Positions 12,133 to 31,024 of a stretch of 37,599 bases of DNA are shown here, one piece after another (the stretch's first letter is position 1; every line of letters begins with the position of its first letter). The DNA is taken from NCBI GenBank assembly GCA_041486935.1, contig JBGPMJ010000001.1:1-37599 (forward strand), read 5' to 3'. The position numbers and the translations under genes are program-made. Source of the DNA: Candidatus Limnocylindria bacterium (GTDB lineage Bacteria; Chloroflexota; Limnocylindria; Limnocylindrales; CSP1-4). The notes below the pieces were generated by a model, which made no database searches, had not been told where the DNA came from, and saw only the letters and a list, made by a program, of their open reading frames with translations.

Positions 12133-13140
12133 ATGAGCGCGATCCCCATCACGTTCCGCGCCTATGTCGCCGACAAGGCCGACGACGGCTCCGTCGCGCG
12201 CGGCGTGCGCACCTTCGCCGAGGCCGACCTGCCCCCGGGCGAGGTCGAGATCCGGATCCTGTGGTCGAGCGTCAACTACAAGGACGGCCTGGCCACCATC
12301 GCCAACGGCAGGGTGGCGCGCATCTCGCCACTCATCCCGGGCATCGACCTGGCGGGCGAGGTGGTGTCCTCGGCCGACCCGGGCATCGCGGTCGGGTCGC
12401 AGGTGCTCGCCCACGGCTATGAGCTGGGCGTCTCGCGGCACGGCGGCTTCGCCGAGTACCAGCGGGTGCCGGCCGGCTGGGTCGTGCCGCTGCCGGGGGG
12501 TCTCACGCCGCACGAGGCGATGGCGGTCGGGACGGCGGGATTCACGGCGGCCATGAGCGTGCTCCGCCTCGAGGAGCGCGGCCTCGTCCCGGGCAGCGGC
12601 CCGGTGCTGGTGACCGGTGCCACCGGGGGCGTCGGGCGGACAGCGGTGGGTGTGCTCGTGGCGCGCGGCTACGAGGTCTGGGCGGCGACCGGCAAGCCCG
12701 AGGCGGCCGAGGAGCTGCTGGCGCTGGGGGCCTCCGGCGTGCTCGACCGGTCGGAGGTCACGGCGGAGAGCCCCAGGCCGCTCGAGTCGGAGCGGTGGGC
12801 GGGCGCCGTGGACTGCGTCGGTGGCTCGACGCTGCCCTACATCCTGCGCACGCTGCGCTACGGCGCGGCGGTGGCGGCCAGCGGCAACACCGGCGGGCCG
12901 GGCTTCTCGACTACGGTCTTCCCCTTCATCCTGCGCGCCGTGGCCCTGCTGGGCATCGACTCCGTGCCGCTGCCGATCGAGGAGCGGCGGCGGATCTGGG
13001 CCCGCATCGCGAGCGACTTCCGGCCGCGCGGCCTGGGCGAGTCGCTCACGGAGGTGACGCTCGACACGCTCGACGCGGCGCTCGACGACATCCTCGCGGG
13101 CCGCGCCCGCGGTCGGTGGGTCGTCCGTGTCGGCGCGTAG
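12133..13140 (+). CDS. YhdH/YhfP-family quinone oxidoreductase (AcuI-like acrylyl-CoA reductase family)
   Basis: ILWSSVNYKDGLA, GIDLAGEVV, AGFTAAMSV and VLVTGATGGVG (Rossmann) are present. ATG 12133 is preferred over the upstream Arg-rich extension from 12055. Confidence 0.8.
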   Translation: MSAIPITFRAYVADKADDGSVARGVRTFAEADLPPGEVEIRILWSSVNYKDGLATIANGRVARISPLIPGIDLAGEVVSSADPGIAVGSQVLAHGYELGVSRHGGFAEYQRVPAGWVVPLPGGLTPHEAMAVGTAGFTAAMSVLRLEERGLVPGSGPVLVTGATGGVGRTAVGVLVARGYEVWAATGKPEAAEELLALGASGVLDRSEVTAESPRPLESERWAGAVDCVGGSTLPYILRTLRYGAAVAASGNTGGPGFSTTVFPFILRAVALLGIDSVPLPIEERRRIWARIASDFRPRGLGESLTEVTLDTLDAALDDILAGRARGRWVVRVGA

Positions 13141-13200
13141 GCCCGGGGTACCATGGCGCCGTGTCCCCGTAGCTCAGTGGACAGAGCAACCGCCTTCTAA
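13090..13200. repeat. left copy of a 111-bp direct repeat (last 16 codons of yhdH, spacer, 5' half of tRNA-Arg)
   Basis: Aligned by hand to 16145-16255 at a constant offset of 3055. It matches at 109/111 positions, with mismatches at 13116 and 13128. Identity ends at the 3' edge of the anticodon loop (..CTTCTAA). Confidence 0.9.
13163..13200 (+). pseudogene. tRNA-Arg(UCU) 5' half only (truncated after the anticodon loop)
   Basis: Identical to 16218-16255. The downstream sequence CAGGGCCCGTCGGTTCGACGTGCTCC cannot form an anticodon stem, T arm or acceptor stem. Confidence 0.85.
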
Positions 13201-16144: not shown

Positions 16145-16255
16145 ATCCTCGCGGGCCGCGCCCGCGGTCGATGGGTCGTCCGCGTCGGCGCGTAGGCCCG
16201 GGGTACCATGGCGCCGTGTCCCCGTAGCTCAGTGGACAGAGCAACCGCCTTCTAA
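16145..16255. repeat. right copy of the 111-bp direct repeat (yhdH-tail fragment, spacer, 5' half of the intact tRNA-Arg)
   Basis: See 13090-13200. Both differences fall on synonymous third positions of the yhdH reading frame (CGG/CGA and CGT/CGC). Confidence 0.9.
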
Positions 16256-16293
16256 GCGGAAGGTCGCAGGTTCGAATCCTGCCGGGGGCGCCA
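16218..16293 (+). tRNA. tRNA-Arg (anticodon UCU), CCA encoded
   Basis: Hand-folded. Acceptor GTCCCCG/CGGGGGC, D arm GCTC-AGTGGACA-GAGC, anticodon loop CTTCTAA (anticodon 16251-16253), variable AGGTC, T arm GCAGG-TTCGAAT-CCTGC, discriminator G plus CCA. Confidence 0.9.
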
Positions 16294-17728
16294 TAACAAC
16301 CTCGGGCAAGAGCACAGCCAGCCCATGGTCGTAGGCGGCCGGGGTCAGCCGCGCTCCCACGATCTGTCGCCCCACGACCTCGATCCGCTCGTAGATCGCG
16401 TGCAGCAACTCCGCCTTCGCCTGCGGGACGTCGGCGTGCTGCCAGGTCTCGCCGATGGCCCGCAGCCAGGTGACCGCTCGCTCGGCCGTGACCCCGCCAG
16501 CTGGCGCTTCCAGCAGGTCCGCGAGCCCGGCCCGGAGATGGCCGATCCGCGCGAGGTAGGCGTCGTCGCCGATCCGCCCCGCGACGTGCTCGAGGGCCAG
16601 CTCGCGCATCTGCTTCTCGAGGCGCCTCGTGTCGATCGAGATCGGCCGGCGGGTGGAGGCGAGGACGCCGACGACCTGGGCGATCGTCGCGTCGTCGAGC
16701 TGCATGGTGCTGACCTGGGCGAGGACCGGTCCCTCCCAGGTCACGTCCGGCAGGCGCGCTCGTGGGCCCCACGCCGTGCAAGGCTCGGGATGGAGCTTGC
16801 GATGCTGACCGTTGGCGAAGGTGCCGTCGGAGCGCAATCGTCGTCCGCAGACGCATTCGAGGAGACCGGCGAGCAGATCGACGCGCTCGTGCTGGCGGGG
16901 GCCACCGCCGCGCGCCTTGTTGCGACGGACCTCCTCGGCCCGCGCCCACAGCGCATCGGACACCGGCGGATCGGCGCGCCAGGGGGCGGCTCGGCGCAGC
17001 TCGTCGGGACCGCGGTGACGGCGCATCCAGCCGTTGTAGAGGGGGTTGCGCAGGATCTTCTCGATGCGGCGGACCTTGTAGCCAGTCTCGCGGGCCAGCT
17101 GCTCCGCCGACACGGTGCCTAGGGCGTAGCGGTCGAAGAGCGCCACGGCCCCGTCGATGGCGGCGGGGTCGACCTCGAGCGTGTGCGGCGGCTCGGGTGA
17201 TCGCCGGAAGCCGAGCGGGGGCAGGCCGCCCTGGTCGCCGTACTGGTCGAATTTCGCCGCGTAGCCGTCCGTGATCCGCTCGCCGAGCCGACGGCTGTAG
17301 CGCTCGGAGGCGGCCGACTCGGCGACGAGCTCATCCCAGTCCTGGGGATCGGAGGAGAGGATCCGCCGGTCGCACATGAAGAGGGCCACGCCCACCGGAT
17401 GGAGGCCATCCTCGAGGAGCTCCAGCGTGCGGCGCAGGTTGCGCTGCCACCGATCCGAATAGCCAGCGAGCAAGAGGTCGAAGCCACCAGCACGCGCCGA
17501 CTCGAGCATCGCTGTCATGGTGGGTGAGCGCCAGACCGTCGTGCCCGAGTGCGCCACCTGCCAGACGAGCCCCGTGTCGACGAGCCCATAGCGCTCGATG
17601 GCGCGGTCCTGCTGCTCGCGCTGGCTGCCGGGCCCGAAGCGGTCGTACTGGCCCGGCCTCGACTCGCGGATCCAGCGCGCGGCCCGGAGGCCGCGCACCT
17701 CGTCGATCGAGCGCGGGAGCCGTCTCAT
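16229..17728 (-). CDS. large serine recombinase (integrase)
   Basis: Resolvase-type N-terminus RAARWIRESRPGQ...GSQREQ, YSDRWQRNLR, and E-helix ERYSRRLGERITDG. Recombinase domain EKILRNPLYNGW, Zn-ribbon LECVCGRRL, and a coiled-coil tail. Start at MRRLPRS (17728, ATGA overlap with the upstream ORF). The 609-aa ORF extension is Arg-rich shadow. Confidence 0.85.
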   Translation of the reverse strand: MRRLPRSIDEVRGLRAARWIRESRPGQYDRFGPGSQREQQDRAIERYGLVDTGLVWQVAHSGTTVWRSPTMTAMLESARAGGFDLLLAGYSDRWQRNLRRTLELLEDGLHPVGVALFMCDRRILSSDPQDWDELVAESAASERYSRRLGERITDGYAAKFDQYGDQGGLPPLGFRRSPEPPHTLEVDPAAIDGAVALFDRYALGTVSAEQLARETGYKVRRIEKILRNPLYNGWMRRHRGPDELRRAAPWRADPPVSDALWARAEEVRRNKARGGGPRQHERVDLLAGLLECVCGRRLRSDGTFANGQHRKLHPEPCTAWGPRARLPDVTWEGPVLAQVSTMQLDDATIAQVVGVLASTRRPISIDTRRLEKQMRELALEHVAGRIGDDAYLARIGHLRAGLADLLEAPAGGVTAERAVTWLRAIGETWQHADVPQAKAELLHAIYERIEVVGRQIVGARLTPAAYDHGLAVLLPEVVMAPPAGFEPATFRLEGGCSVH

Positions 17729-17940
17729 GAGGCTCGGCCGCCGTGGAGCTCGGTGATCGGCATGGCCGGCATGTTTGCTCTGTCTCGAGGCAATGCGCAA
17801 GGCAACTCCGCGGGGCCGCCCGGATAGCGGGCGTCGAGCGCCTCGACGTAGCGGGCCAGCGCGACGATGAGCGGGTCGGGATGGCGCGAAAGCGTCCCTG
17901 GCTGGGAGGGCCCGTGATCCAACCCGACGCCCGGGGCCAT
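17725..17940 (-). CDS. small ORF translationally coupled to the serine recombinase
   Basis: Its stop overlaps the recombinase ATG (ATGA at 17725-17728). The plausible segment is DPLIVALARYVEALDARYPGGPAEL. The start at MAPGVG (17940) is a guess. Confidence 0.35.
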   Translation of the reverse strand: MAPGVGLDHGPSQPGTLSRHPDPLIVALARYVEALDARYPGGPAELPCALPRDRANMPAMPITELHGGRAS

Positions 17941-17972
17941 GTCGCCGCCGAGGTGTCCCGTCGCTGCGTTGG

Positions 17973-18221
17973 TCACGGGACCGCCTCCAGCACCGCCACT
18001 GCGGCGGCGACGCAGGGCCCGCAACGGTACCGTTCGTCGGGGGCCAGTGACTCGCCACACGAGCAGCACGTGCCTGGCGGCCGACGGGCGTCCGGCCGGG
18101 CGAGGAAGAGGGGGATAGATCCCTCTGCGTGCACCTGCGGGCGCATGGCGGCGATCCGCCAGGCGACCGCAGGGTCGAGCGCAGGACGATCCTCGATTAG
18201 GAAGCGACGGGCGAGGTCCAA
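17973..18221 (-). CDS. small Cys-rich (Zn-ribbon-like) protein
   Basis: C-terminal CCSCGESLAPDERYRCGPC. The start is uncertain (TTG 18221 or ATG 18146). It lies between the DUF3987 stop and the recombinase operon. Confidence 0.35.
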   Translation of the reverse strand: MDLARRFLIEDRPALDPAVAWRIAAMRPQVHAEGSIPLFLARPDARRPPGTCCSCGESLAPDERYRCGPCVAAAVAVLEAVP

Positions 18222-18276: not shown

Positions 18277-19644
18277 TCAGGCACGCTGCCATACCTCGAC
18301 CGGTCTGCCGCCGGTCGCGCGCGGTTCCACGCGAGCGAGGCCGGCCTCCAGCAGGACGCCGAGCGCGACGTCGACCTGCGGCTCGGAGGCGTGGCGGCCC
18401 AGCAGATCCCGGATCTCGGTGCGCGTGAGCTCGTCGGCCTGACCGAGCGCCCGCAGGATGCGGTCGGCGAGCGGATTGCCGGTCGCCTCACCGAAGAGGA
18501 AGCGCACGGAGCGCTCGGCGTAGCCCCAGACCTCGACGGCCGCCTGGAGGTGCACCGGCTCCACGACCACCGAGCGATCCAGTAGCGCGTAGAGGATCGC
18601 TAGTCTGAGGACGTGGGCCTCGGCCCGCGCCAGCATCGCGCCTACGAGCCCGGGGTGGGCGCGGGAGAGGTCTGCGTAGATGGCCCCCCAGAGTTCACGG
18701 GCGGGCTGGCTCCGCTCGATCCGGCCCTGGGCGCGGGCGAACGCGATCCTGTTGCGCAGCTCGTCCGCCACGAGTTGGACGGGGCGACCCTCGAAGGGTT
18801 CCGGCTCGGGCAGCAGCTTGCTGCGCCGCGCTACCATCACCAGCCAGCGGTTCATGAAGCCGTTAGCGGCCTCGGAGTCGGAGAGTTCGCGGCGCAGCTC
18901 GTCGGCGGTGATGTGGCCGACGGTCGAGACGTGGGCCCCGGTAGCCCGGAGGTGCGTCCCCTTCGTGATCACCGCCAGGTCGCCCCCGTCCCAGGCGTCC
19001 CGCATGATCATCGAGAGGATGCTGCCCTGCCGGCCGGCGACGCGCAGGATGCGAGCGAGCTCGGGCTCCACGACGAGGAGGCGCTTGTCGTTCTCGCCTT
19101 CGTCGGCGACGACCGTCTCGTACCGGGTGACGCGGCCACCCTCGCGCACCGGTTCGAGGCGGGTCGTCGGGTCCCGCACCGCCCATATCACCCCCTCGCC
19201 AGAGCCGAAGCCAGAGTGGATGCGCCGGGCGCAGTAGTCCGGGTCGGCCAACTCGAAGATGCGCCGCACCGGGCTGAAGCTGTCGCCCTTGCGCGCCTTG
19301 GCCGTGTCGCCCACGACCATGACGTTCGTGTTCGTCCCGTGTCGCGTGGCGCCGACCATCGCATGCGGCTCGGGGCCGATCACGGAGCCGAACAGCACGA
19401 GCGTCTGGCCCAGGACGGCGACGGGATCGCCCTCGGTATGGGGATCGATGGCCTCGACGATGCGCCCTGCGAGCCCGTGGTACGCCACCGTGGCCGGGCG
19501 TTCAGGCCATGCCGCCGCACTTCGGTCGCTTCGGTCGCTTTGGTCGCGCAGCCCGTCCGGCCGATCGTCGGCTGAGGGCCGTCTTGCGCCGTGGCGGGCG
19601 CTGCCCAGGCTTTCCCGCGGGTCAGTCGAAGCGGGCCCGTTCAT
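18277..19644 (-). CDS. DUF3987-family protein (YfjI-like, helicase/primase-associated protein of integrative elements)
   Basis: 455 aa. YHGLAGRIVEAIDPHTEGDPVAVLGQTLVLFGSVIG matches the N-terminal signature I associate with DUF3987. The context is an integrative element. Confidence 0.65.
   Translation of the reverse strand: MNGPASTDPRESLGSARHGARRPSADDRPDGLRDQSDRSDRSAAAWPERPATVAYHGLAGRIVEAIDPHTEGDPVAVLGQTLVLFGSVIGPEPHAMVGATRHGTNTNVMVVGDTAKARKGDSFSPVRRIFELADPDYCARRIHSGFGSGEGVIWAVRDPTTRLEPVREGGRVTRYETVVADEGENDKRLLVVEPELARILRVAGRQGSILSMIMRDAWDGGDLAVITKGTHLRATGAHVSTVGHITADELRRELSDSEAANGFMNRWLVMVARRSKLLPEPEPFEGRPVQLVADELRNRIAFARAQGRIERSQPARELWGAIYADLSRAHPGLVGAMLARAEAHVLRLAILYALLDRSVVVEPVHLQAAVEVWGYAERSVRFLFGEATGNPLADRILRALGQADELTRTEIRDLLGRHASEPQVDVALGVLLEAGLARVEPRATGGRPVEVWQRA
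19520..19546. repeat. 3 x 9-bp tandem array CTTCGGTCG / CTTCGGTCG / CTTTGGTCG
   Basis: Read directly from the sequence. It is the reverse complement of the unit at 18249-18275. It lies in the N-terminal coding region of the DUF3987 gene and encodes DRSDRS. Confidence 0.85.
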
Positions 19645-21080: not shown

Positions 21081-21932
21081 CTACCTTGGCGGGAAGGCGG
21101 TCGCGAGGACGCGGATCAGTCGTTCGATGGCCGCCCCATCCAACACCTGCCCATGGGTGATGAGCTCCCGGATGGAGCGCTTCCCCTCGAGGCGCACACC
21201 GCGATAAGACTCCGGCGGCCTGAACAGCGGCCACTCACCCTCGACGAAGCAGAGCACCGGGGTGATCGGGGGCATGACCTCGAGAGCGGCCGACTGGAGG
21301 GCGCGCTCGACCGCTGCGACCTGCCAGCCCATGTTCTCCGCGAGCTCCGAGCAGTCCCGGCGACCGACGTACAGGCGCAGGTCGGTCCTGAAGAGGCCGC
21401 CCCGGTCCCGGATCCGGATGAGGCCTTCGTAGTGCTTCGCATCGACGACGAACACGCCGGCTGGGGCGACGACGAGGTGGTCGATGTTCCCGCTCGTGCC
21501 CGGCACGCTCCGATCGTGGAGCACCCTCACGCCGGGGACCCCGGCGCGCGACTCGGCGAGTTCCTCCTCGCCGAGTGCGCCCCGCGCCCAGGCGCGGGTC
21601 GACTGGGGCTCCCTGGTAATGGCGAGGACAATGCCGCCAAGGCGATCGCCGAGCTGGCCTTTGACCCGTGCCTCACGGCTGGCCCTCTGACGCTCGTACT
21701 CCCGTCGGGCGGATCCCCCGGCCACGCCGCCATCGGCGACCGGGTCCGGTTCGCCACCGGCACCGGTCGGGCACGCCACGCACCGGACGGTCCGGGTGGG
21801 CTGGTGGTAGAGGGCCTCCGTGTTCTTGGCCAATGGCGTTCCGCACAGGACGCAGGTGCCGGCATAGCGCAAGCGCAGGCGCCTGAGCTCCGGCGCGTGT
21901 GCAGCAGGCTCCTCCGGTGGCCTGGGATCCAT
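21081..21932 (-). CDS. NERD domain protein with N-terminal Zn-ribbon
   Basis: GNIDHLVVAPAGVFVVDAKHYEG is a NERD core. N-terminal CVLCGTPL...VRCVACP is Cys-rich. Start at MDPRPPEE (21932). Confidence 0.7.
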   Translation of the reverse strand: MDPRPPEEPAAHAPELRRLRLRYAGTCVLCGTPLAKNTEALYHQPTRTVRCVACPTGAGGEPDPVADGGVAGGSARREYERQRASREARVKGQLGDRLGGIVLAITREPQSTRAWARGALGEEELAESRAGVPGVRVLHDRSVPGTSGNIDHLVVAPAGVFVVDAKHYEGLIRIRDRGGLFRTDLRLYVGRRDCSELAENMGWQVAAVERALQSAALEVMPPITPVLCFVEGEWPLFRPPESYRGVRLEGKRSIRELITHGQVLDGAAIERLIRVLATAFPPR

Positions 21933-22072
21933 CTGGCCCACAAGTCTAGGCACCTGCCTGCCTGACTGCCCGGTGAGAAGTGCGCACGGCGTCCGCACAA
22001 GGCCCACCGCGGCGCGCCGCCGACCCTTGGCACGACGGCCGGTACGATCGAGGCAGTGCTGATCGACGGCCC

Positions 22073-23038
22073 CTACACCCCGATCGCCACCGCCACATCA
22101 GGCCACGTCCGGTCGGCCTCGCCCTCAAGTCGCCGGAGGTAGACGGTGGTCACCGCGAGCGAGCTGTGGTCGAGGAACGCGCTCACCGCCTCGACCGAGG
22201 CACCGGCGTCCCGTCGAAGCTTCGCCGCCGTGTGCCGGAGGACGTGGAGCCCGGTCGGCGCAAGGCGAGCCGCCGCGAGGTACCGGCGGAACCGCCCGTA
22301 GAACGTGCCGCTTGTGATCCCACAGGGGCGCGCCCCAGCCTGCCAGAGCGACCCGTCCGGTTCCATCGTCGCGAGGTCCTTGCCGGCGTCGGCGAGCGTG
22401 GCGCAGATCGCCTCGAAAGCCGGTCGCGGAAGTTCCCGCCGACCCCGCTTGCCGCCCTTGCCGCGGTAGGCGTAGAAGGCCGTCTCGCCCTCGAGGCTGA
22501 GATCGCCGGCCCGCAGGCTCATCACCTCGGCGCGGCGCCGCCCGGTCAGCACGAGGACCAGGAGCATCGCCCGGTCCCGCCGTCCTGCGACGGTGTCAGG
22601 GACGACCGCGAGCAGGCGACGGACCTCATCCGCTGAGTAGCCGCGAGCGACGGAAGGGACGGTCCGTGGGCGCTCAAGCGCGTCGCACGGGTTGGCGATC
22701 ATCAAACCCATTCGGATGCCGAAGCGATAGAAGGAGCTGAGACAGGCGATCCGTGCGCCGACCGTCGCGGCGGATGGCGTCCGACCCGACAGGCCGATGC
22801 CGTGAGCGTAGGCGAGGACGTCCGAGGCGCGGACCCGATCCGGGGTCGTCACCCGGAAGAACGGCCAGAGCATCCGGGCATAGCTCTCGACCGTGCGGGT
22901 CGAGCCTGAGCGGCTGCGTTTCTCTACCAGGAACGCGTACAGGGCCTGGTCCCACGTGGAGCCGCCGCCGGTGGTACGGGCGGGGAGGAGTTGCGGGTTC
23001 ACGGGCGATCTCCTGAGCGAGTGGATCGACCACATCAC
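22073..23038 (-). CDS. tyrosine recombinase / phage-type integrase
   Basis: The catalytic-domain signatures GRRRAEVMSLR, LHVLRHTAA and LDHSSLAVTTVYL (R..HxxR..Y) are present. Confidence 0.85.
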   Translation of the reverse strand: MMWSIHSLRRSPVNPQLLPARTTGGGSTWDQALYAFLVEKRSRSGSTRTVESYARMLWPFFRVTTPDRVRASDVLAYAHGIGLSGRTPSAATVGARIACLSSFYRFGIRMGLMIANPCDALERPRTVPSVARGYSADEVRRLLAVVPDTVAGRRDRAMLLVLVLTGRRRAEVMSLRAGDLSLEGETAFYAYRGKGGKRGRRELPRPAFEAICATLADAGKDLATMEPDGSLWQAGARPCGITSGTFYGRFRRYLAAARLAPTGLHVLRHTAAKLRRDAGASVEAVSAFLDHSSLAVTTVYLRRLEGEADRTWPDVAVAIGV

Positions 23039-23272: not shown

Positions 23273-24544
23273 CTACTTTGTCCAGTAGCCGTCCATTACC
23301 TCGTCGGCGACATTCAGATTGAGGCGTTCGCGCTTGCCAGCCGTGTCCTTCTCCAAGTGGATACCGAGTTCCTTGATTACCTCTGGGAAAGGGCGAACAT
23401 GTGCGAGCCCGTCCTTCGGCGTGACCTCGTAAATGAACGCGCGCTCCTCCCCGTTCCAGGCCTCGCAGATCACGTAGGGGCTGTGCGAGGAGATGAGAAC
23501 TTGACTGGCGGGTGCGCCGTCGCTTGGGAAAGCTACGGATCTCATCGCCTCATAGACGTGCCTAGTCGAGCGCGGCGTTAGGCCGTTCTCGGGCTCCTCG
23601 ATGCAGATGATCGGCTGCCGCGAGGGGTTAGCCAACAAGACAGTCAGGCCGACGAGGGAAAGCGTTCCGTCCGACAGGTTTGCCGCAGCCACGACGCCGC
23701 GCGAGTCGTCGAATCTCGCGGAGAAGCCAACGCGGTCGGGGCCAACGGTGTTGAACTCGAAACCGTCGAACCCATCGACGCTGGACCGCAAGCTGTCGAC
23801 GACTTCGTCCAGGGTGGGGCTCGCTGTCTTGTCCAAGAAGTATAGGACGGTCGGAAGGCCCTCGCCCCGGTAATCGAGGCTCGGAGCCTGAGGGGCGGTC
23901 CCGATCGCGTCGGCACTGTCAGCGCCGCTCGGCCCAGCAACACTCACGTCGGGCAACCGGGACGGCTGTGAAAGGAACTGCGGATTCAACCGGAACTTGC
24001 CGATACGACTGACCCCTCGGGCGACGTGCGTGACAAGCGGGTCGGTCTCTTCGTACTGACCGCTGACCTGAGCGCGACGGATGGCGGCGAATATGCTCTG
24101 GTCGTCGGTTAGGTACCGAATCACACTGCCCAGGGGCGAGGCCTCGAGCTCGGACCTGCTGAAGTGGTCTGTCCCGTTCGAGCCCGACAGCTTCTCGTCG
24201 AAGATCTGGTACCGAGGTGGGTCGGCCGCGCCCGCCACTTGGGCGTAGGAGACGGAGTAGGTCAGGTGTTCCTCGTCAGCCGCTGCCCGAGAGAGGTCGA
24301 CCTCGAATGAGATCCGGGCGGCGGGTGCTGCGCCGTGGCTCTTCCTCGAGCGGAACGAGTACGGTCCCGGACCGAAGGCTTCACTGAGCCGTCCTCGAGA
24401 CACCATCGTGAAGTTGAGGAGCGCGTCGAAGAGGGCCGACTTACCTCCGTTATTCGGACCTACGAAGACTGAGATCGGGTGAAGCCCCACCGACGTTTGC
24501 CGGTGGATCATGAAGTTCTTCACTGAGAAGCGGCGGATGAACAC
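23273..24544 (-). CDS. ABC/SMC-like AAA ATPase (AAA_15/AAA_21 type) with no adjacent partner gene
   Basis: Walker A FVGPNNGGKSALFDAL, signature-like LSDGTLSL, Walker B PIICIEEPENGL and H-loop LISSHSPYV. GC is clearly lower (about 55-58%). Confidence 0.8.
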   Translation of the reverse strand: MFIRRFSVKNFMIHRQTSVGLHPISVFVGPNNGGKSALFDALLNFTMVSRGRLSEAFGPGPYSFRSRKSHGAAPAARISFEVDLSRAAADEEHLTYSVSYAQVAGAADPPRYQIFDEKLSGSNGTDHFSRSELEASPLGSVIRYLTDDQSIFAAIRRAQVSGQYEETDPLVTHVARGVSRIGKFRLNPQFLSQPSRLPDVSVAGPSGADSADAIGTAPQAPSLDYRGEGLPTVLYFLDKTASPTLDEVVDSLRSSVDGFDGFEFNTVGPDRVGFSARFDDSRGVVAAANLSDGTLSLVGLTVLLANPSRQPIICIEEPENGLTPRSTRHVYEAMRSVAFPSDGAPASQVLISSHSPYVICEAWNGEERAFIYEVTPKDGLAHVRPFPEVIKELGIHLEKDTAGKRERLNLNVADEVMDGYWTK

Positions 24545-24943: not shown

Positions 24944-25993
24944 TCAAGCCGCGGCCGCGAGACCCACCGGTCCGGCGGCTCTGGCGGCTTCATCGTGACG
25001 CATCCGGCGGAAGACCTCGTCGCTGATCCGACGTCGCAGCGCGCGGATGGCCTCGGTCTTCGTGTTGCCCAGGGCCCGTCGGTGCTCCAGGTACGTCTTG
25101 CCGGGCCCCTCGCGCTGGAGCTGCGTGATGGCGATCCGGTGGAGCGCCACGTTGAGCTGGCGGTTGCCCGTCCGGCTCAGGCGATGGCGTTCGGTGTTGC
25201 CCGACCAGACCGGCAGCGGGGCACTGCCGTTGTGCCGGGCGAAGGCGGCGCTCGAGCGGAAGCGACCGATGCCGGCCGTCTCGCCGACGAGCTTGGCGGC
25301 GGTCAAGGGCCCGCAGCCGGTGAGGGCCAGCAGGGATGGCGCGAGGTCGGCGACGAGGCGGGCAATCTCCCGTTCCAGGGCGTTGATCGTCGCGGTCAGC
25401 TCGCGGATCCGGACGACCAGTTCGCGGGCGATGCGGGCGACCGTGCCCGGCTGGCCGGCCAGGCGCGCCTCGAGGGCGGTCAGGACGACCGCGCGGTCGA
25501 GAGCGCGGGCCGGCGGCTCCGTTCCCGGGTCGAGTTCGTGGAGGTGCCATCGCAGCCGGTTCTGGGCACGCGTCCGCTCGGCCACGAGATCCTCGCGGTG
25601 GTCGACGAGCAGGCGCACCTCGCGCTCGGGGCCGTCGAGCGTGGCTACCGGCAGGTCGGGCTCTCGGAGCGCAGCCCGGGCGACGGCGAGGGCGTCGATC
25701 GGATCGCTCTTGCCGGGCTCGCGGGAGGAGCACCGGGCCCCGGCCATGAGCTTGGGTGGCACACGCACGACCGCCTCGCCGGCGCAGAGCAGGTCGCTCG
25801 AGAGGCGGCGGCTGAGGTGCCGGCAGTCTTCCAGTGCCCAGCGCCGCTCGGCGAACCGGGCGGCCCAGCGGACGAGCTCGAGGTGGCCCGCGCTGATCGC
25901 CGCCACGGTCTTCTCCGCGAGTTTACGGCCGGTCGCATCGACCGCCACGACGGTGTGGGTGCGCTTGTGCGAATCGACGCCGAGGATGACCAT
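24944..25993 (-). CDS. IS110-family transposase (DEDD recombinase)
   Basis: N-terminus MVILGVDSHKRTHTVVAVDATG. The C-terminal Transposase_20-like region reads LLALTGCGPLTAAKLVGETAGIGRF.. and ..RTGNRQLNVALH. Tandem GGAGG sequences lie upstream of the ATG. Confidence 0.9.
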   Translation of the reverse strand: MVILGVDSHKRTHTVVAVDATGRKLAEKTVAAISAGHLELVRWAARFAERRWALEDCRHLSRRLSSDLLCAGEAVVRVPPKLMAGARCSSREPGKSDPIDALAVARAALREPDLPVATLDGPEREVRLLVDHREDLVAERTRAQNRLRWHLHELDPGTEPPARALDRAVVLTALEARLAGQPGTVARIARELVVRIRELTATINALEREIARLVADLAPSLLALTGCGPLTAAKLVGETAGIGRFRSSAAFARHNGSAPLPVWSGNTERHRLSRTGNRQLNVALHRIAITQLQREGPGKTYLEHRRALGNTKTEAIRALRRRISDEVFRRMRHDEAARAAGPVGLAAAA

Positions 25994-26238: not shown

Positions 26239-27129
26239 GTGCCGCCGGCTGAACCAGTCCTCGCAACGGCCGGGCAGCTCCGGCTGCTCCCTGCTGAGCC
26301 GCGCCCGCCCCGGGCGCTAGCCCCGCTATTCCGATGGCCGGGCGGCAAGCGTTGGCTCTTACCGCTGCTCAGGGAGCTCGTGCCAGCAGACGTCGGGCGG
26401 TACTATGAGCCGTTCTTCGGCGGTGGCGCCTTGTTTCTGGCCCTGCGCCCGAATGCCGCGACGATCTCGGACCGGAACTCGGCGCTGATGGACTGCTACA
26501 AAGCCATCCGGGACGACCACGCCGAAGTAGCGCGGATCCTCCGCGGGTTCCCGCGGGATCGCGACAGCTACTTCAAGATCCGCTCGAACCTGCCCGAAGA
26601 ACCCTCAGCGCGAGCAGCTCGCCTGATCTACCTAACCACGCTTGCTTTCAACGGCATCTACCGAGTCAATCGTCGTGGTGCATTCAATGTCCCGTATGGA
26701 GGGCGAACCTACGACGACCTAGGCAACGAGGAAATCCTCCGCGCCCATGCCGAAGCATTCGCGGCCGTCGAGATCAAGTCTGGCGACTTTGAGAACGCCG
26801 TGACCGGAGCCAGCGCGGGCGACTTCGTATATCTGGACCCGCCCTACACGGTCACGCATTCAAACAACGGATTCGTCCGGTACAACGATCGAATCTTCTC
26901 CTGGAAGGACCAGCAGCGCATGGCCGACGTTGCTCAGTCGCTGGGTCGGTCAGGATGCACCGTCGTGGTCTCGAACGCGTCTCATCCCTCGATACTCGAT
27001 CTGTATCCGTCCTTCCGTGCGATCAGCGTGACGAGGACCTCCGTGATGGCGGCCACGGCTGGTCGACGCGGTCCCATCCAGGAGCTTGTCCTGACCAATG
27101 CTCCTACCGCGGAGCCAGGTACGACATGA
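26239..27129 (+). CDS. Dam-family (D12 class) N6-adenine DNA methyltransferase
   Basis: FRWPGGKRWLLP, YYEPFFGGGALFL (motif I) and FVYLDPPY (motif IV, DPPY at 26836-26847). GTG start. The stop overlaps the next ATG. Confidence 0.85.
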   Translation: MPPAEPVLATAGQLRLLPAEPRPPRALAPLFRWPGGKRWLLPLLRELVPADVGRYYEPFFGGGALFLALRPNAATISDRNSALMDCYKAIRDDHAEVARILRGFPRDRDSYFKIRSNLPEEPSARAARLIYLTTLAFNGIYRVNRRGAFNVPYGGRTYDDLGNEEILRAHAEAFAAVEIKSGDFENAVTGASAGDFVYLDPPYTVTHSNNGFVRYNDRIFSWKDQQRMADVAQSLGRSGCTVVVSNASHPSILDLYPSFRAISVTRTSVMAATAGRRGPIQELVLTNAPTAEPGTT

Positions 27130-29384
27130 CCGAAGCGGCGCCCACACTCAAGCTCATTTCCGGGTCTGAACTCGAAGCGGAGCTCCGCCTTCGCCGGTCC
27201 GCTTGGCTCTACAAGCGAGTCGCTCCGTCGGACGTTGCTGCGCACGAGGTTGACGGCTGGACAGAGGCGAGAGTCAACAAGAACTCCGTGCGCCTCCAGA
27301 AGGCGAAGCCGATCGACCAGGCGCTTGAGGATGACGTGTGGTCTCTTCTGGCGCGACTCGGCTTCATTCAGCTGAGCCAGGGTCACCGGTTCGTTATACC
27401 CGTCACCAAAGGCCCCGGACAGATCGTGTCGAAGCAGATCGACGTCCTGGCAGCCGATGACGAGACCGCCCTCGTGGTCGAGTGCAAGGCGTCAGCGCCA
27501 GCAAGACCCCGGTCGATGGCAAGGGATCTCGCGGAAGCCTACGCGCTTCGAGGAGCGGTGATATCGGCGCTGCGCCAGCACTACGGGATCAAGAAGAAGA
27601 TCGGCTGGCTCTTCGTGACCCGGGGGATCATTTGGGGTGACAACGATCGTGCTCGGGCGGACGAGTTCAAGATCCGCGTCCTCACTGACAACGATCTCGA
27701 CTACTTCCTCCGCCTGGCTGACCATCTTGGGACCGCCGCGCGCCATCAACTCCAAGCCGAGGTCTTCGGCGACCAGCAGATCGAAGGCCTGAATCGAACA
27801 GTGCCTGCGGTTCGCGGCCGCATCGGAGGCCGCCGTTTCTACCAATTCACAATCGATCCCGACCGTCTGCTCAAGATTGCGTTCATCAGCCACCGTGCGC
27901 GTCTCGATGCCGAGAGCGTCGGAGCCTATCAGCGGATGCTTCGCAAGGGGAGGTTACGCGACATTCGTCGGTACATCGACGAAGGCGGCGTCTTCCCGAC
28001 CAACGTCGTCGTCAACTTCCGAACCAGACGACGCTTCGAACTGAGTGCCGACAAGTCGGACGGTGACGTCGCCCTCGGCACGCTGTATCTCCCGAACACC
28101 TACAAGTCCGCCTGGATCATCGACGGCCAGCACCGTCTCTACGGATTCGTCGGCAGCAAGTGGTCCAAGTCAACGCAGCTTCCCGTGCTCGCCTTCGAAG
28201 CGCTGCCCCCAAGTGAGGAGGCGCGGCTCTTCGTCGACATCAACAACAAGCAGGTGAAGGTCCAGCGAAGTCTGCTCGTGGAACTGATGTCCGAGCTCTA
28301 CTGGGATTCCCCCATCCCGGACGAGGCGTACCACGCGGTGTTGTCGCGGATCGTCGCCGTATTAGGCAAGGACATCGCCTCCCCGTTCCGCGGCCGAATG
28401 GTCCAAGAGGGCGACACCCAGACCGCGGATACCCCGCTCACCGTGACGGCCGTCTACGAGTCATTGAAGAAGTCCAACCTCGTTGGGGCCATTCGTAAGG
28501 GAGTATTCGACCCCGGGCCTCTGTACGACGGCGATGCCCACAAGGCCGTTCGCCGCTCGGTGGACGTCCTCTCCAAATACTTCCGTCTCTTCGCTGATGC
28601 CCTCCCAGACCACTGGTCTCGGGGCAATGGAGAAGGCGGATACCTCTGTACGAACAACGGCGTAAGCGCACTCCTGCTGGTCCTGGGCGCCATCGTCGAC
28701 CACCTAGATCAATTCGGATCGCCGAAGCCATGGCAGGCCACTCCGCAGGAGCTCGAGGACGCCCTCCACCCCTTCGCGGCCCCAATCACCGAGATCTTCA
28801 AGAAAGCCGACCTACCGGAGATTCGCCAATATCGCCGTCAGGTGGGGAACGCCGGCCAGCGGCAAGCTGCGTTCGCCATGATGGAAGCAGTTCAGTCAGA
28901 GAAGCCCGGCTTCAATCCCGAGGGTCTCGCGGAGTTCATCCGGAGCCAGGATCAGACAGGCACGAACACAGCACGCCAGCTCATGCCCGAGCTTCAGCTC
29001 ACGATCCACGACGCCACGATGACATTGCTCCGCAGTCTTTTCGGACATGACGAGAGTGGTTGGTGGCGTAAGGGGGTCCCCGAGAAGGTCCGGACGGAGG
29101 TCGCGGCGCGTCGTGAGACCAACCCTGAGGGTGGCGCCTACGACCAGTTCTTCGAGCTGCTCGACTATCGCTCGATTGCTGCGGCGAACTGGGATTCCTT
29201 CGATCCTTATTTCGCTTTCGGCCCTGGCAAGGGCAAGGAGAACCAGCTCGCATGGTTCGGTAAGCTCGGCGCGATCCGGAATCGCATTGCCCATCCGGAA
29301 CGGGGGACCGTATCTGAGGAGGAGCTGGCCTTCATCGAGGCGCTGGCTGATCATTTCGAGAAGGTTGCCGCGCCGCTCCTCTAG
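27126..29384 (+). CDS. 752-aa multidomain protein: PD-(D/E)xK-like N-terminus, DGQHR (DndB/ParB-like) domain, C-terminal HEPN (Rx4H)
   Basis: IDVLAADDETALVVECK (27441-27488). AYQRMLRKGRL..FPTNVVVNF, IIDGQHRLYG (DGQHR 28122-28136) and FVDINNKQV. GAIRNRIAHPERG (RNRIAH 29277-29294). ATG 27126 overlaps the methylase TGA (ATGA). Confidence 0.8.
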   Translation: MTEAAPTLKLISGSELEAELRLRRSAWLYKRVAPSDVAAHEVDGWTEARVNKNSVRLQKAKPIDQALEDDVWSLLARLGFIQLSQGHRFVIPVTKGPGQIVSKQIDVLAADDETALVVECKASAPARPRSMARDLAEAYALRGAVISALRQHYGIKKKIGWLFVTRGIIWGDNDRARADEFKIRVLTDNDLDYFLRLADHLGTAARHQLQAEVFGDQQIEGLNRTVPAVRGRIGGRRFYQFTIDPDRLLKIAFISHRARLDAESVGAYQRMLRKGRLRDIRRYIDEGGVFPTNVVVNFRTRRRFELSADKSDGDVALGTLYLPNTYKSAWIIDGQHRLYGFVGSKWSKSTQLPVLAFEALPPSEEARLFVDINNKQVKVQRSLLVELMSELYWDSPIPDEAYHAVLSRIVAVLGKDIASPFRGRMVQEGDTQTADTPLTVTAVYESLKKSNLVGAIRKGVFDPGPLYDGDAHKAVRRSVDVLSKYFRLFADALPDHWSRGNGEGGYLCTNNGVSALLLVLGAIVDHLDQFGSPKPWQATPQELEDALHPFAAPITEIFKKADLPEIRQYRRQVGNAGQRQAAFAMMEAVQSEKPGFNPEGLAEFIRSQDQTGTNTARQLMPELQLTIHDATMTLLRSLFGHDESGWWRKGVPEKVRTEVAARRETNPEGGAYDQFFELLDYRSIAAANWDSFDPYFAFGPGKGKENQLAWFGKLGAIRNRIAHPERGTVSEEELAFIEALADHFEKVAAPLL

Positions 29385-29660
29385 CTGTGATGCGGCGCAG
29401 ACGACGGCGAGGCCCCCTCTTGGCTGTTGGGCACACGATGGAAGCATAGTGTTGGGACTGAGCGCGAGATCGCGGTCATTACCGGTCGACGCCGCTCTTG
29501 ATGTCGGCGGCGACTGCGCCGACGCGGCGCCGGGCGACACCCCTCGGCTGGCCGGCGAACGATCGCGTTCACCCGCGATCACCAAGCCTCACTGCGTAGT
29601 TGCGCCCTTGCCACCCGAGGTGACACGGGACCAACTACTCTGGTGTCACGGGGAGGGAGC

Positions 29661-29981
29661 GTGGTGACGGACCCACAGCTCGAGCGCCGCTTCGACGCGG
29701 CGATGCTCGACATCTATCACGAGGCGTCGCGCCTTGGCTACCGCCCGACGCGCTTCCTCGAGATGGTGCGCGAACACGGCGGGGTCGAGGCGGCACACCT
29801 GTTGCTCGCCAACCGCGAGGCCCAGTCAGGACTGACCGAGTTGTGGCTGCTCGGGAGACCAGACTTCTCGATGGAACACCTCGTCTTGTCGGACGAGTTC
29901 GCCTTGCTCTTCTCGGACGAGGAGCGTCGGACGGCACGGGAACGCTTGGAAGTGATCTTGACCCCTCGGGGGCGCGCATGA
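29661..29981 (+). CDS. small helical protein of unknown function
   Basis: GGGAGGGAG precedes in-frame GTG codons at 29661 and 29664. The composition is balanced (RFDAAMLDIYHEASRLGYRPTRFLEMVREHGGVEAAHLLL..). The stop overlaps the next ATG (ATGA 29978-29981). Confidence 0.6.
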   Translation: MVTDPQLERRFDAAMLDIYHEASRLGYRPTRFLEMVREHGGVEAAHLLLANREAQSGLTELWLLGRPDFSMEHLVLSDEFALLFSDEERRTARERLEVILTPRGRA

Positions 29982-31024
29982 CCGCCATCTGGGAGAAGGC
30001 CGAGGGTGGCTGGAGGACGCTCGTGCCGGCGGGCTTTCCCGACGAGGCCGCGCTGCACGGGTTGGTCGAAGATGCGCCGGAACTTCTGCCGCTGTCAGGC
30101 GCAGCGCGCCTGACAGTGATCGGGCGCGAGGTACCCATCGGGCCTTGGTACGCCGATCTCGTGGCGATCGAGCCGGACGGTCGCGTCGCGATTATCGAGG
30201 TCAAGCTCGCGAAGAACAACGAGGCCCGCCGCGCCGTCGTTGCCCAGGTGCTCTCCTATGCGGCGTTTCTTCGTGGCACTGGGCGCGAGAGCTTCGAGCA
30301 CGACCTGGTCGGACCGTACCTGCACGCCAAGGGCTGGCCCAGTCTGGCCGAGGCGGTCCGCGCGACGACGCAGGACGCCTCGTTCGATGCCGACGCACTT
30401 GCGTCCGGGATCGATCGCAGCCTCGAGCTTGGCGCGTTTCGTCTCGTGCTCGTCCTCGACGACGCTCCACCAGAGCTCGTGCGCCTGGTCGGTTACCTGG
30501 AGCTCATCGGCGAGCACCTCGTGATTGACCTCATCACGGTGACGTCCTACGACGTGGGCGACCGCCAGATCCTCGTCCCGCAGCGCGTCGAACCTGGGCG
30601 GCAGGCGGACATGCAACCGCTCGCCAAGACAGCAGCGGCGGCGGACGCCGTGGCAGATGGCGGTGCTGTCTTCGAGGAGATGATCAAGACCGCGCCGGCA
30701 GACCGTCGTCCTCTCCTGACCCAGTTGCTCCAATGGGCCCGTGACCTCGAGCACGAGAAGCTCGTGCGGCTATTCTCGTACCGCGGCAAGCAGCAGACGT
30801 CGTTGCTGCCACGCCTCCAGCCGGAACAGGTCGGACTCGTCTCGATCTGGCAGAACGGCGGGATGTCGCTCTGGCGTAGCGTCTTCGAGCGCCACGCACC
30901 TGCCTTCATCGAGCGGGTCGAGGCGATCACGGGCGTGCCGATGGGGTTTGGGACCAGCGCCGGCACGGTCACACCCGAGCTGCTCGCGATCCTCACAGAG
31001 GCGTACCGGGAAGCAGCGAAGTAG
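29978..31024 (+). CDS. NucS/DUF91-like PD-(D/E)xK nuclease family protein
   Basis: FPDEAALHGLVEDAPELL...YADLVAIEPDGRVAIIEVKLAKNNEARRAVVAQVLSYAAFL gives a D..ExK core followed by a Q..Y helix, as in NucS-type nuclease domains. Confidence 0.65.
   Translation: MTAIWEKAEGGWRTLVPAGFPDEAALHGLVEDAPELLPLSGAARLTVIGREVPIGPWYADLVAIEPDGRVAIIEVKLAKNNEARRAVVAQVLSYAAFLRGTGRESFEHDLVGPYLHAKGWPSLAEAVRATTQDASFDADALASGIDRSLELGAFRLVLVLDDAPPELVRLVGYLELIGEHLVIDLITVTSYDVGDRQILVPQRVEPGRQADMQPLAKTAAAADAVADGGAVFEEMIKTAPADRRPLLTQLLQWARDLEHEKLVRLFSYRGKQQTSLLPRLQPEQVGLVSIWQNGGMSLWRSVFERHAPAFIERVEAITGVPMGFGTSAGTVTPELLAILTEAYREAAK

Follow-up and report, generated by a model that had tools for sequence, protein, structure and literature searches.

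A Dam-family methylase gene coupled to the gene of a DGQHR protein with predicted nuclease and HEPN domains: a candidate restriction-modification-like pair on a bacterial genomic island

Do four adjacent genes on a genomic island of Candidatus Limnocylindria bacterium make up one defence system, or does the unit preserved across genomes comprise fewer of them? The genes lie on the plus strand of a 37,599-nucleotide (nt) stretch of DNA (contig JBGPMJ010000001.1, positions 1 to 37,599; hereafter referred to as the window) and code for a Dam-family methylase (26239-27129), a 752-residue protein to which a PD-(D/E)xK nuclease domain, a DGQHR domain and a HEPN domain are assigned (27126-29384), a small protein (29661-29981) and a NucS/EndoMS-like PD-(D/E)xK protein (29978-31024). 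An earlier note on this DNA had interpreted them as a single four-gene module. The arrangement of the four open reading frames (ORFs) which it described is confirmed by the sequence: the stop codon of the methylase gene overlaps the start of the 752-residue protein gene in an ATGA (27126-27129), a further ATGA overlap (29978-29981) connects the small ORF with the NucS-like gene, and a spacer of 276 nt (29385-29660) separates the two gene pairs. The four-gene module itself is not sustained. As judged from the comparison of related loci, the conserved unit consists of the methylase and the 752-residue protein, and genes 3 and 4 are independent island cargo.

The conserved two-gene unit and its proteins

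Relatives of the 752-residue protein which share 86%, 69% and 62% identity with it keep a Dam gene directly upstream, overlapping or abutting their own; in the case of a 93% identical relative the contig ends within an upstream gene that overlaps that of the relative. The genes downstream of all four relatives are unrelated and different each time, and genes 3 and 4 are absent beside every one of them. The same picture emerges from a sample of 80 loci of the three-domain protein, taken with 10-kb flanks from GTDB species-representative genomes, in which ORFs were called and neighbours clustered. Not a single tblastn match to the small protein or the NucS-like protein was obtained in these 80 loci, the co-occurrence of the NucS-like gene with methylase and DGQHR protein being a check that the earlier note had proposed. 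It is because genes 3 and 4 show no co-occurrence with the pair, and because each of them is found in other contexts, that we place the boundary of the unit behind the second gene.

That all four genes nevertheless constitute one four-component defence system might be suggested by their common strand, their adjacency, the two ATGA junctions and a GC dip which they share with respect to the core genome. Besides the missing co-occurrence, several observations speak against such a system, and we consider it highly improbable. The NucS-like family, with more than 1381 homologues, occurs alone in varied contexts, be it behind the operon of a type I restriction-modification (R-M) system, next to the gene of a HicA toxin or surrounded by genes of metabolism; a 91% identical relative of the NucS-like protein has a different upstream partner, DUF6650; and the small protein is likewise found with other partners. 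For genes 3 and 4, which are translationally coupled in the window, no conserved pairing was found either. Furthermore, the two gene pairs differ in base composition, genes 1 and 2 having a GC content of 0.62-0.64 and a third-codon-position GC content (GC3) of 0.74-0.76, compared to 0.66-0.67 and 0.83-0.84 in genes 3 and 4. The individual GC values amount to 0.635 (methylase), 0.618 (752-residue protein), 0.657 (small ORF) and 0.671 (NucS-like protein), and 300-nt windows range from 0.58 to 0.69. The window starts with 12.5 kb at a GC content of 0.73, while its right flank remains at 0.66-0.68 up to about 33.5 kb; the GC dip of 55-66% against flanks of about 70% previously attributed to the cluster is therefore real, but the contrast was overstated. 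Within the spacer between the two independent units, the scan revealed no promoter-like or terminator-like site, the predicted fold is ordinary (z=-1.47), and no homology to, or remnant of, DUF7662 or other small genes that occupy this position in relatives was found. Three independently assembled metagenome contigs carry the same proteins (gene calls of 296, 752, 105 or 106, and 348 residues), the 752- and 348-residue products being identical and the small protein 99% identical.

The first gene of the unit codes for 296 residues, and its product is predicted to be an alpha-class, DpnM-like N6-adenine DNA methyltransferase of the Dam family, which bears out its previous classification as a D12/Dam-type enzyme. 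It matches TIGR00571 with 194.5 bits (cutoff 114.85), PF02086 with 158.1 bits (E=4.5e-46, cutoff 22) and the PADLOC model MTase_II with E=3.3e-70, and carries both the S-adenosylmethionine-binding motif FFGGGA and the catalytic motif DPPY. The closest solved structure is that of DpnM (2dpm, E=2.4e-57), while E. coli Dam is matched with 3e-23. Against the E. coli-type Dam equivalog NF008152 the protein scores 100.7 bits, far below the 441 bits demanded by this model.

The second gene starts at an internal ATG and codes for the 752-residue protein. Its central DGQHR domain, a DndB/DpdB-type domain of the ParB/Srx fold (27801-28535, about residues 226-470), is recognised by TIGR03187 with 161 bits (cutoff 58.85) and by PF14072 (DndB) with E=1.6e-13. 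Three hallmarks characterise such domains according to PMC4619093, namely a QR pair, the pentapeptide DGQHR and the motif FxxxN. In the present protein they take the form of YQR, DGQHR (residues 333-337) and FxxxN, with Q269-R270, D333-R337, F369 and N373 invariant in 106 aligned homologues. The PADLOC model of DpdB matches with E=3.9e-29, although this match is limited to the DGQHR domain, and the equivalog cutoffs are missed throughout (DpdB NF041060, 96.8 versus 300; DndB TIGR03233, 26.6 versus 328; TIGR04172, 77.6 versus 450).

On both sides of this domain further domains are discernible at the level of the family. In an AlphaFold2 model of the 752-residue protein built on the alignment of 106 homologues (mean pLDDT, the predicted local distance difference test, of 87.8), the N-terminal portion adopts an alpha/beta fold (27303-27710, about residues 60-195) whose best Foldseek matches are VC1899, Cdn1, Card1, Can2, AF1548, McrC and Hjc; a weak match to PADLOC CARF_PDDEXK (E=1.5e-4) covers the nuclease part, too. 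The C-terminal portion (28983-29381, about residues 620-752) is all-helical in the model, contains the motif R718-x4-H723 and is weakly matched by PADLOC PDC-M34B at residues 637-738 (E=3.4e-5). Searching Pfam with 22 diverse relatives yielded DndB in 22, Hjc in 13, HEPN_Swt1 (PF18731) in 13 (best E=1.9e-6) and Card1_endonuc in five of them. When the profile of the family was run against the sequences of the PDB, only chance-level matches were returned (E >=0.19). At the level of the family, motifs, fold and Pfam matches support the assignment of the N-terminal domain to the PD-(D/E)xK superfamily and of the C-terminal domain to the Swt1-type HEPN domains. The combination of PD-(D/E)xK, DGQHR and HEPN originally assigned to this protein from its motifs (D106/E119/K121, DGQHR, R718/H723), all of which are present in the translation just as those of the methylase, can accordingly be retained, the DGQHR domain exceeding its cutoff and the two others being supported by the family.

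The putative active-site residues are well preserved. D106, E119 and K121 are kept in at least 40 of 42 methylase-linked family members, the DGQHR pentapeptide in all 81 aligned proteins and R718 together with H723 in 78 of these 81, including all but one of the methylase-linked members. A separate observation concerns the lysine of the nuclease motif, which is encoded at 27486-27488. The lysine of this E-C-K sequence is kept in 40 of the 42 methylase-linked members and replaced by threonine (E-C-T) in 30 of 33 members linked to radical-SAM/GHKL genes. The K/T difference at the nuclease active site follows the type of partner gene.

Partner genes across the three-domain family

At least 703 full-length homologues of the 752-residue protein exist. 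They comprise 750-790 residues and are spread over many bacterial phyla as well as archaea; an exhaustive search delivered 508 clusters of the three-domain family (50% identity, E<=1e-30). Among 50,697 phage records no full-length match was found, only short matches to the DGQHR domain. Across phyla, the three-domain gene almost always resides beside a partner of DNA-modification type. If the nearest three called ORFs to its left and to its right are considered, such a partner set is present in 73 of the 80 loci. Of the seven remaining loci, three are contigs shorter than 5 kb, and in a further one (L031) a Dam gene overlooked by the ORF caller was found by tblastn. The dominant neighbour families are Dam (about 280 residues), MT-A70 (about 216 residues) and a radical-SAM-like protein (about 542 residues) accompanied by a GHKL/HATPase_c_3 protein (about 515 residues); some loci additionally encode a further DGQHR protein, which is short. 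Dam accounts for 29 loci by clustering or 30 by tblastn, MT-A70 for nine and the radical-SAM-like and/or GHKL genes for about 35, most of which carry both genes. The linkage of DGQHR-HEPN homologues to a methylase, on which the initial interpretation depended, is thus borne out for roughly 30 Dam and nine MT-A70 loci.

Most of the Dam genes overlap the three-domain gene or lie directly against it (gaps between -47 and +41 nt), and a distance tree of the three-domain proteins reveals that the partner type tracks clades. One large clade has Dam downstream, and a separate large clade comprises the radical-SAM/GHKL loci. The actinobacterial clade to which the window's protein belongs has Dam upstream and is sister to a Chloroflexota clade with MT-A70, while a further, largely archaeal group mostly has Dam upstream as well. 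In 32 Dam-linked loci the pairwise identities of the methylase correlate with those of the three-domain protein (r=0.65; Mantel test, 0 of 2000 permutations), to which shared ancestry of the hosts could contribute. For the radical-SAM-like and GHKL partners there is no system-level match in PADLOC or NCBIfam, only weak generic matches to ATPase domains; this gene set could represent a DNA-modification module of a new kind. A full-length family member is also present on plasmid pNL1 of Novosphingobium aromaticivorans (locus L093, 5974-12472), where it is annotated as 'DGQHR domain-containing protein' and oriented convergently with an operon of short-DGQHR, radical SAM and ATP-binding genes.

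Predicted function and rival explanations

Dam-class enzymes methylate adenine at N6 within short motifs, the target of DpnM being GATC. PD-(D/E)xK domains cut DNA, HEPN domains with an Rx4-6H motif are mostly RNases, and the DGQHR and DUF262 modules of the ParB/Srx fold bind nucleoside triphosphates (NTPs). Against this background we consider it reasonably probable that genes 1 and 2 constitute a horizontally mobile and self-contained R-M-like pair in which the methylase marks self DNA, the fused protein restricts and its HEPN domain provides a second line. The methylase would mark the host DNA, with GATC as its probable target. The DGQHR domain may then operate as an NTP-dependent DNA-binding or loading switch that reads the presence of the mark and, on incoming unmarked DNA, licenses cutting by the N-terminal nuclease. 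The HEPN domain would add RNA cleavage as a second line of the abortive-infection (Abi) type, the net effect being R-M plus Abi within a single polypeptide. The division of labour put forward in the earlier note, with the methylase marking self and the DGQHR multi-nuclease protein acting as effector, agrees with this proposal and fits the strong, clade-specific linkage of the family to DNA-modification genes. The combination of R-M and Abi also matches two published descriptions: HEPN domains fused to restriction endonucleases or ParB nucleases are predicted to be R-M-linked suicide effectors (PMC3710099), and PD-lambda-5 is described as a compacted R-M and Abi system with a methyltransferase (Vassallo et al. 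2022, PMC9519451). Nucleotide binding as required for the proposed switch has been reported for a DndB-like protein which binds ATP and GTP (bioRxiv 10.1101/2025.10.10.680097). The GATC count of the window (306 matches versus 252 +/- 11 expected from shuffles), which indicates slight enrichment and no avoidance, is uninformative on the specificity of the methylase and says nothing either way.

A broader proposal, which we put forward only tentatively, is that the restriction endonuclease-DGQHR-HEPN protein is the common effector of a new class of modification-based immunity. Its NTP switch would couple the mark to DNA cleavage and collateral RNA cleavage and would have been re-paired with Dam, MT-A70 or radical-SAM/GHKL modules. 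If this is true, the radical-SAM and GHKL module installs a DNA modification not yet described.

Several points weigh against an R-M-like function of the pair. About 45% of the family members partner with genes other than methylases. The 752-residue protein of the window is itself significant in Pfam for DndB only, not for a nuclease or HEPN domain, and for this reason both assignments rest on relatives, motifs and fold; the Foldseek E-values, in turn, are at best 2e-3 and hence weak, and none of the 50 listed matches is a HEPN structure. In addition, DndB represses or limits phosphorothioation and DpdB is an ATPase helping preQ0 insertion, which places both on the side of modification, not restriction. 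Finally, the full-text literature searched contains no experimental or named description of the methylase/three-domain pair.

The role of DndB and DpdB, the two characterised DGQHR proteins, is at the same time a motive for assuming that the 752-residue protein regulates or assists the modification enzyme, its nuclease-like domains being used for DNA binding or nicking. Three unrelated modification-type modules as partners are what one might expect of a generic helper, and the exchange of the nuclease lysine for threonine in the radical-SAM clade points in the same direction. Yet the methylase-linked clades have kept the full D-ExK triad as well as the Rx4H dyad, which would be costly if these residues were non-catalytic. 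Moreover, the radical-SAM-type loci often hold the second, short DGQHR protein within the modification operon. This short protein is the better candidate for a helper, and since it fits that role the long protein is left as effector. To our knowledge, Dam-family methylases of this size, Dam and DpnM among them, act alone in all studied cases. On balance, our analysis makes a mere helper function appear unlikely. With still somewhat greater reserve, one may think of an SspE-like sensing of the self mark. In this case the DGQHR domain would bind methylated self DNA and thereby activate its NTPase and the nucleases against replicating phage DNA, or the protein would respond to loss of the mark; classical R-M, by comparison, cleaves recognition sites that are unmethylated. 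SspE, a DUF262 ParB-like domain combined with a nuclease, is stimulated by the phosphorothioate mark of its own host (PMC8092258). DUF262 and DGQHR are related modules of the ParB/Srx fold sharing QR, DGQ(H/Q)R and FxxxN, and a HEPN RNase suggests an abortive output over simple restriction. What speaks for the R-M-like function instead is that the two genes are ordered and translationally coupled as in any ordinary R-M pair; still, sequence alone does not separate the two.

Rather improbable, in our estimation, is a pair devoid of any role in phage defence, i.e. a selfish addiction or stabilisation module that causes post-segregational killing via a methylase/toxin pair, or an inactive remnant. 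Its surroundings would suit such a module: the island harbours a serine recombinase, a tyrosine integrase and an IS110 element beside a tRNA-Arg gene, IS110 ends 245 nt upstream of the methylase gene and may have displaced its promoter, and members of the family occur on plasmids such as pNL1. However, both ORFs are intact with all motifs present, and the same sequence was recovered on three independently assembled contigs. Addiction is, besides, no exclusive alternative as R-M systems are commonly addictive and defensive at once.

The surrounding island and known systems

The small protein of the second gene pair starts with GTG and comprises 106 residues; its ORF was recognised correctly before, its length was given as 107. 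Position 29643 is listed as an alternative left end of this ORF (29643/29661-29981), and GGGAGGGAG is located just 5' of the GTG start. The protein belongs to no known family and has 91 homologues of about 106 residues. Elsewhere (L100-L105) it is encoded behind an MPN635_N protein or overlaps an unrelated 367-residue gene in another defence island, which also holds McrB, Eco57I-type and D12 methylase genes.

The NucS-like protein (348 residues, internal ATG start) has neither a Pfam match, the NucS model included, nor a match in NCBIfam, and a PDB sequence search gave none. It is matched by PADLOC PDC-S11 (PDLC04916) with E=2.2e-13, residues 5-211 aligning with profile positions 8-190 of 358; PDC-S11 is a PADLOC candidate only, and the match is restricted to the N-terminal half of the protein. 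The top three Foldseek matches of its model (mean pLDDT 87.3) are EndoMS/NucS structures (5gke, 2vld; probability 1.0, E about 3e-3, template-modelling score 0.2-0.3). The former description as a NucS/DUF91-like PD-(D/E)xK protein is fair at this level of the fold. As in NucS/EndoMS, an invariant motif D60...E74-x-K76 occurs in a similar strand context; in contrast to NucS/EndoMS, the protein has an additional C-terminal domain and gives no family match by sequence. Some members of the NucS-like family (P0168, P0173, P0199, P0228) bear a C-terminal PF01035 domain (Atl1/MGMT-type, binding DNA lesions), a fusion which hints that the family might recognise damaged or modified bases. A DUF7662 protein of 77-86 residues, 56% identical between the two loci in question, is encoded directly behind a DGQHR pair at one of them (L082, 3551-3784) and directly in front of a DUF6650 and NucS-like pair at the other (L091, 2463-2723); it may be a recurrent small gene of defence islands.

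Upstream of the four genes, the island contains the two recombinases and the insertion sequence (IS) element reported before. A tRNA-Arg(TCT) gene (16218-16293) is followed by the serine recombinase (16229-18058), by a DUF3987 protein (18277-19644, minus strand) and a NERD-domain nuclease (21081-22007, minus strand) as cargo between the two recombinases, and by the tyrosine integrase (22073-23038). An AAA_21/OLD-type ATPase (23273-24544, minus strand) is separated from the methylase gene by the IS110 transposase/element (24944-25993). This ATPase, for which no obvious partner gene is present, matches PADLOC HEC-01A with E=3.4e-32 and also AriA. MAD3 of the MADS system matches only this ATPase, which is unrelated to the pair (81.9 bits, cutoff 420); no MAD protein exceeds its equivalog cutoff, and membership in MADS was rejected. 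From 31192 onwards, a co-directional minus-strand run codes for NTP_transf_5, a 316-residue protein, PfkB, an IF-2B-like protein and a permease, and the first 13 kb of the window hold ordinary genes (ABC transporter, DUF1015, DUF1611, alcohol dehydrogenase). No direct repeat was found at the right end of the island; large serine recombinases need none. On the left, a 111-nt direct repeat with 98% identity is present at 13090-13200 and 16145-16255, the latter copy consisting of 73 nt of upstream sequence and the first 38 nt of tRNA-Arg(TCT). The repeats flank a 3-kb segment with a GC content of about 0.68 and two ORFs without Pfam match; the segment could be another small integrated element, or else the product of a duplication.

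How does the pair compare with systems already described? No named system matches it in PADLOC, and NCBIfam provides only the generic DGQHR domain for the 752-residue protein, consistent with the original statement that the combination does not correspond to a named defence system. With the type II R-M system DpnII (DpnM and R.DpnII) it shares a DpnM-like methylase coupled to a PD-(D/E)xK-containing partner, and its likeness to type II R-M lies, as far as sequence features go, in adjacency, translational coupling and co-variation. Unlike R.DpnII, the 752-residue partner matches no restriction-enzyme model in PADLOC, Pfam or NCBIfam (DpnII/MboI included) and adds an NTP-binding DGQHR domain and a HEPN domain. 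With DndB and DpdB the protein has the DGQHR/ParB-fold domain, its motifs and the link to a DNA-modification enzyme in common; it differs from them by the additional N-terminal nuclease and Swt1-type HEPN domains, by an adenine methylase as partner and by the lack of dndACDE or dpdA/C genes. Scans of the larger ORFs across the window detected no Dnd, Ssp or Dpd component, as had been stated earlier, and no TGT (dpdA) or DUF328 gene was found in it. Membership in Dnd, Dpd or TIGR04172 was rejected in view of the missing components and of scores far below the equivalog cutoffs.

GmrSD, SspE and BrxU resemble the 752-residue protein in their logic, being modification-aware defence proteins that join a ParB/Srx-fold NTP-binding module to a nuclease. 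They combine, however, DUF262 with an HNH-type DUF1524 domain in place of DGQHR, PD-(D/E)xK and HEPN, and are Type IV or mark-sensing systems without a cognate base methylase of their own. The methylase of the window weakly matches PD-Lambda-5_B (E=8.1e-11). Membership in PD-lambda-5 was rejected nevertheless, as no protein matches PD-Lambda-5_A and the methylase fits the generic MTase_II far better.

Should the inferred function be true, the pair would represent R-M in compact form, with an NTP switch and an RNase built into the restriction subunit, and would merge host-controlled restriction and abortive infection in one protein. This would imply a restriction-side role for DGQHR/DndB-type domains, a role that is debated for Dnd systems. 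The three-domain family is absent from the system models of PADLOC and NCBIfam, so that defence annotation currently misses it, and its radical-SAM-like and GHKL partner set points to a possibly new DNA modification. Part of the ground has been covered before: Anantharaman et al. 2013 (PMC3710099) catalogued a Swt1-family HEPN-ParB fusion (Saro_3948) computationally and in the same way predicted operons in which a HEPN family is combined with a ParB nuclease and a DNA methylase (MAE_28990); DndB, too, was remarked to combine ParB-like and HEPN domains (PMC3632139). Saro_3948 is a predicted fusion of the same kind as the 752-residue protein, and the family member on pNL1, with which it may or may not be identical, stems from the same species. 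Since both the ParB-HEPN fusion and methylase-linked ParB/HEPN operons were already catalogued, the finding is less new than the earlier note implied; the combination of three domains, the pairing into a two-gene unit and the choice among three partner sets go beyond the passages of that catalogue considered here. What distinguishes the R-M-like pair is its unusual fused effector; it is nothing categorically new, and its copy in the window is an ordinary member of the Dam-linked branch of the family.

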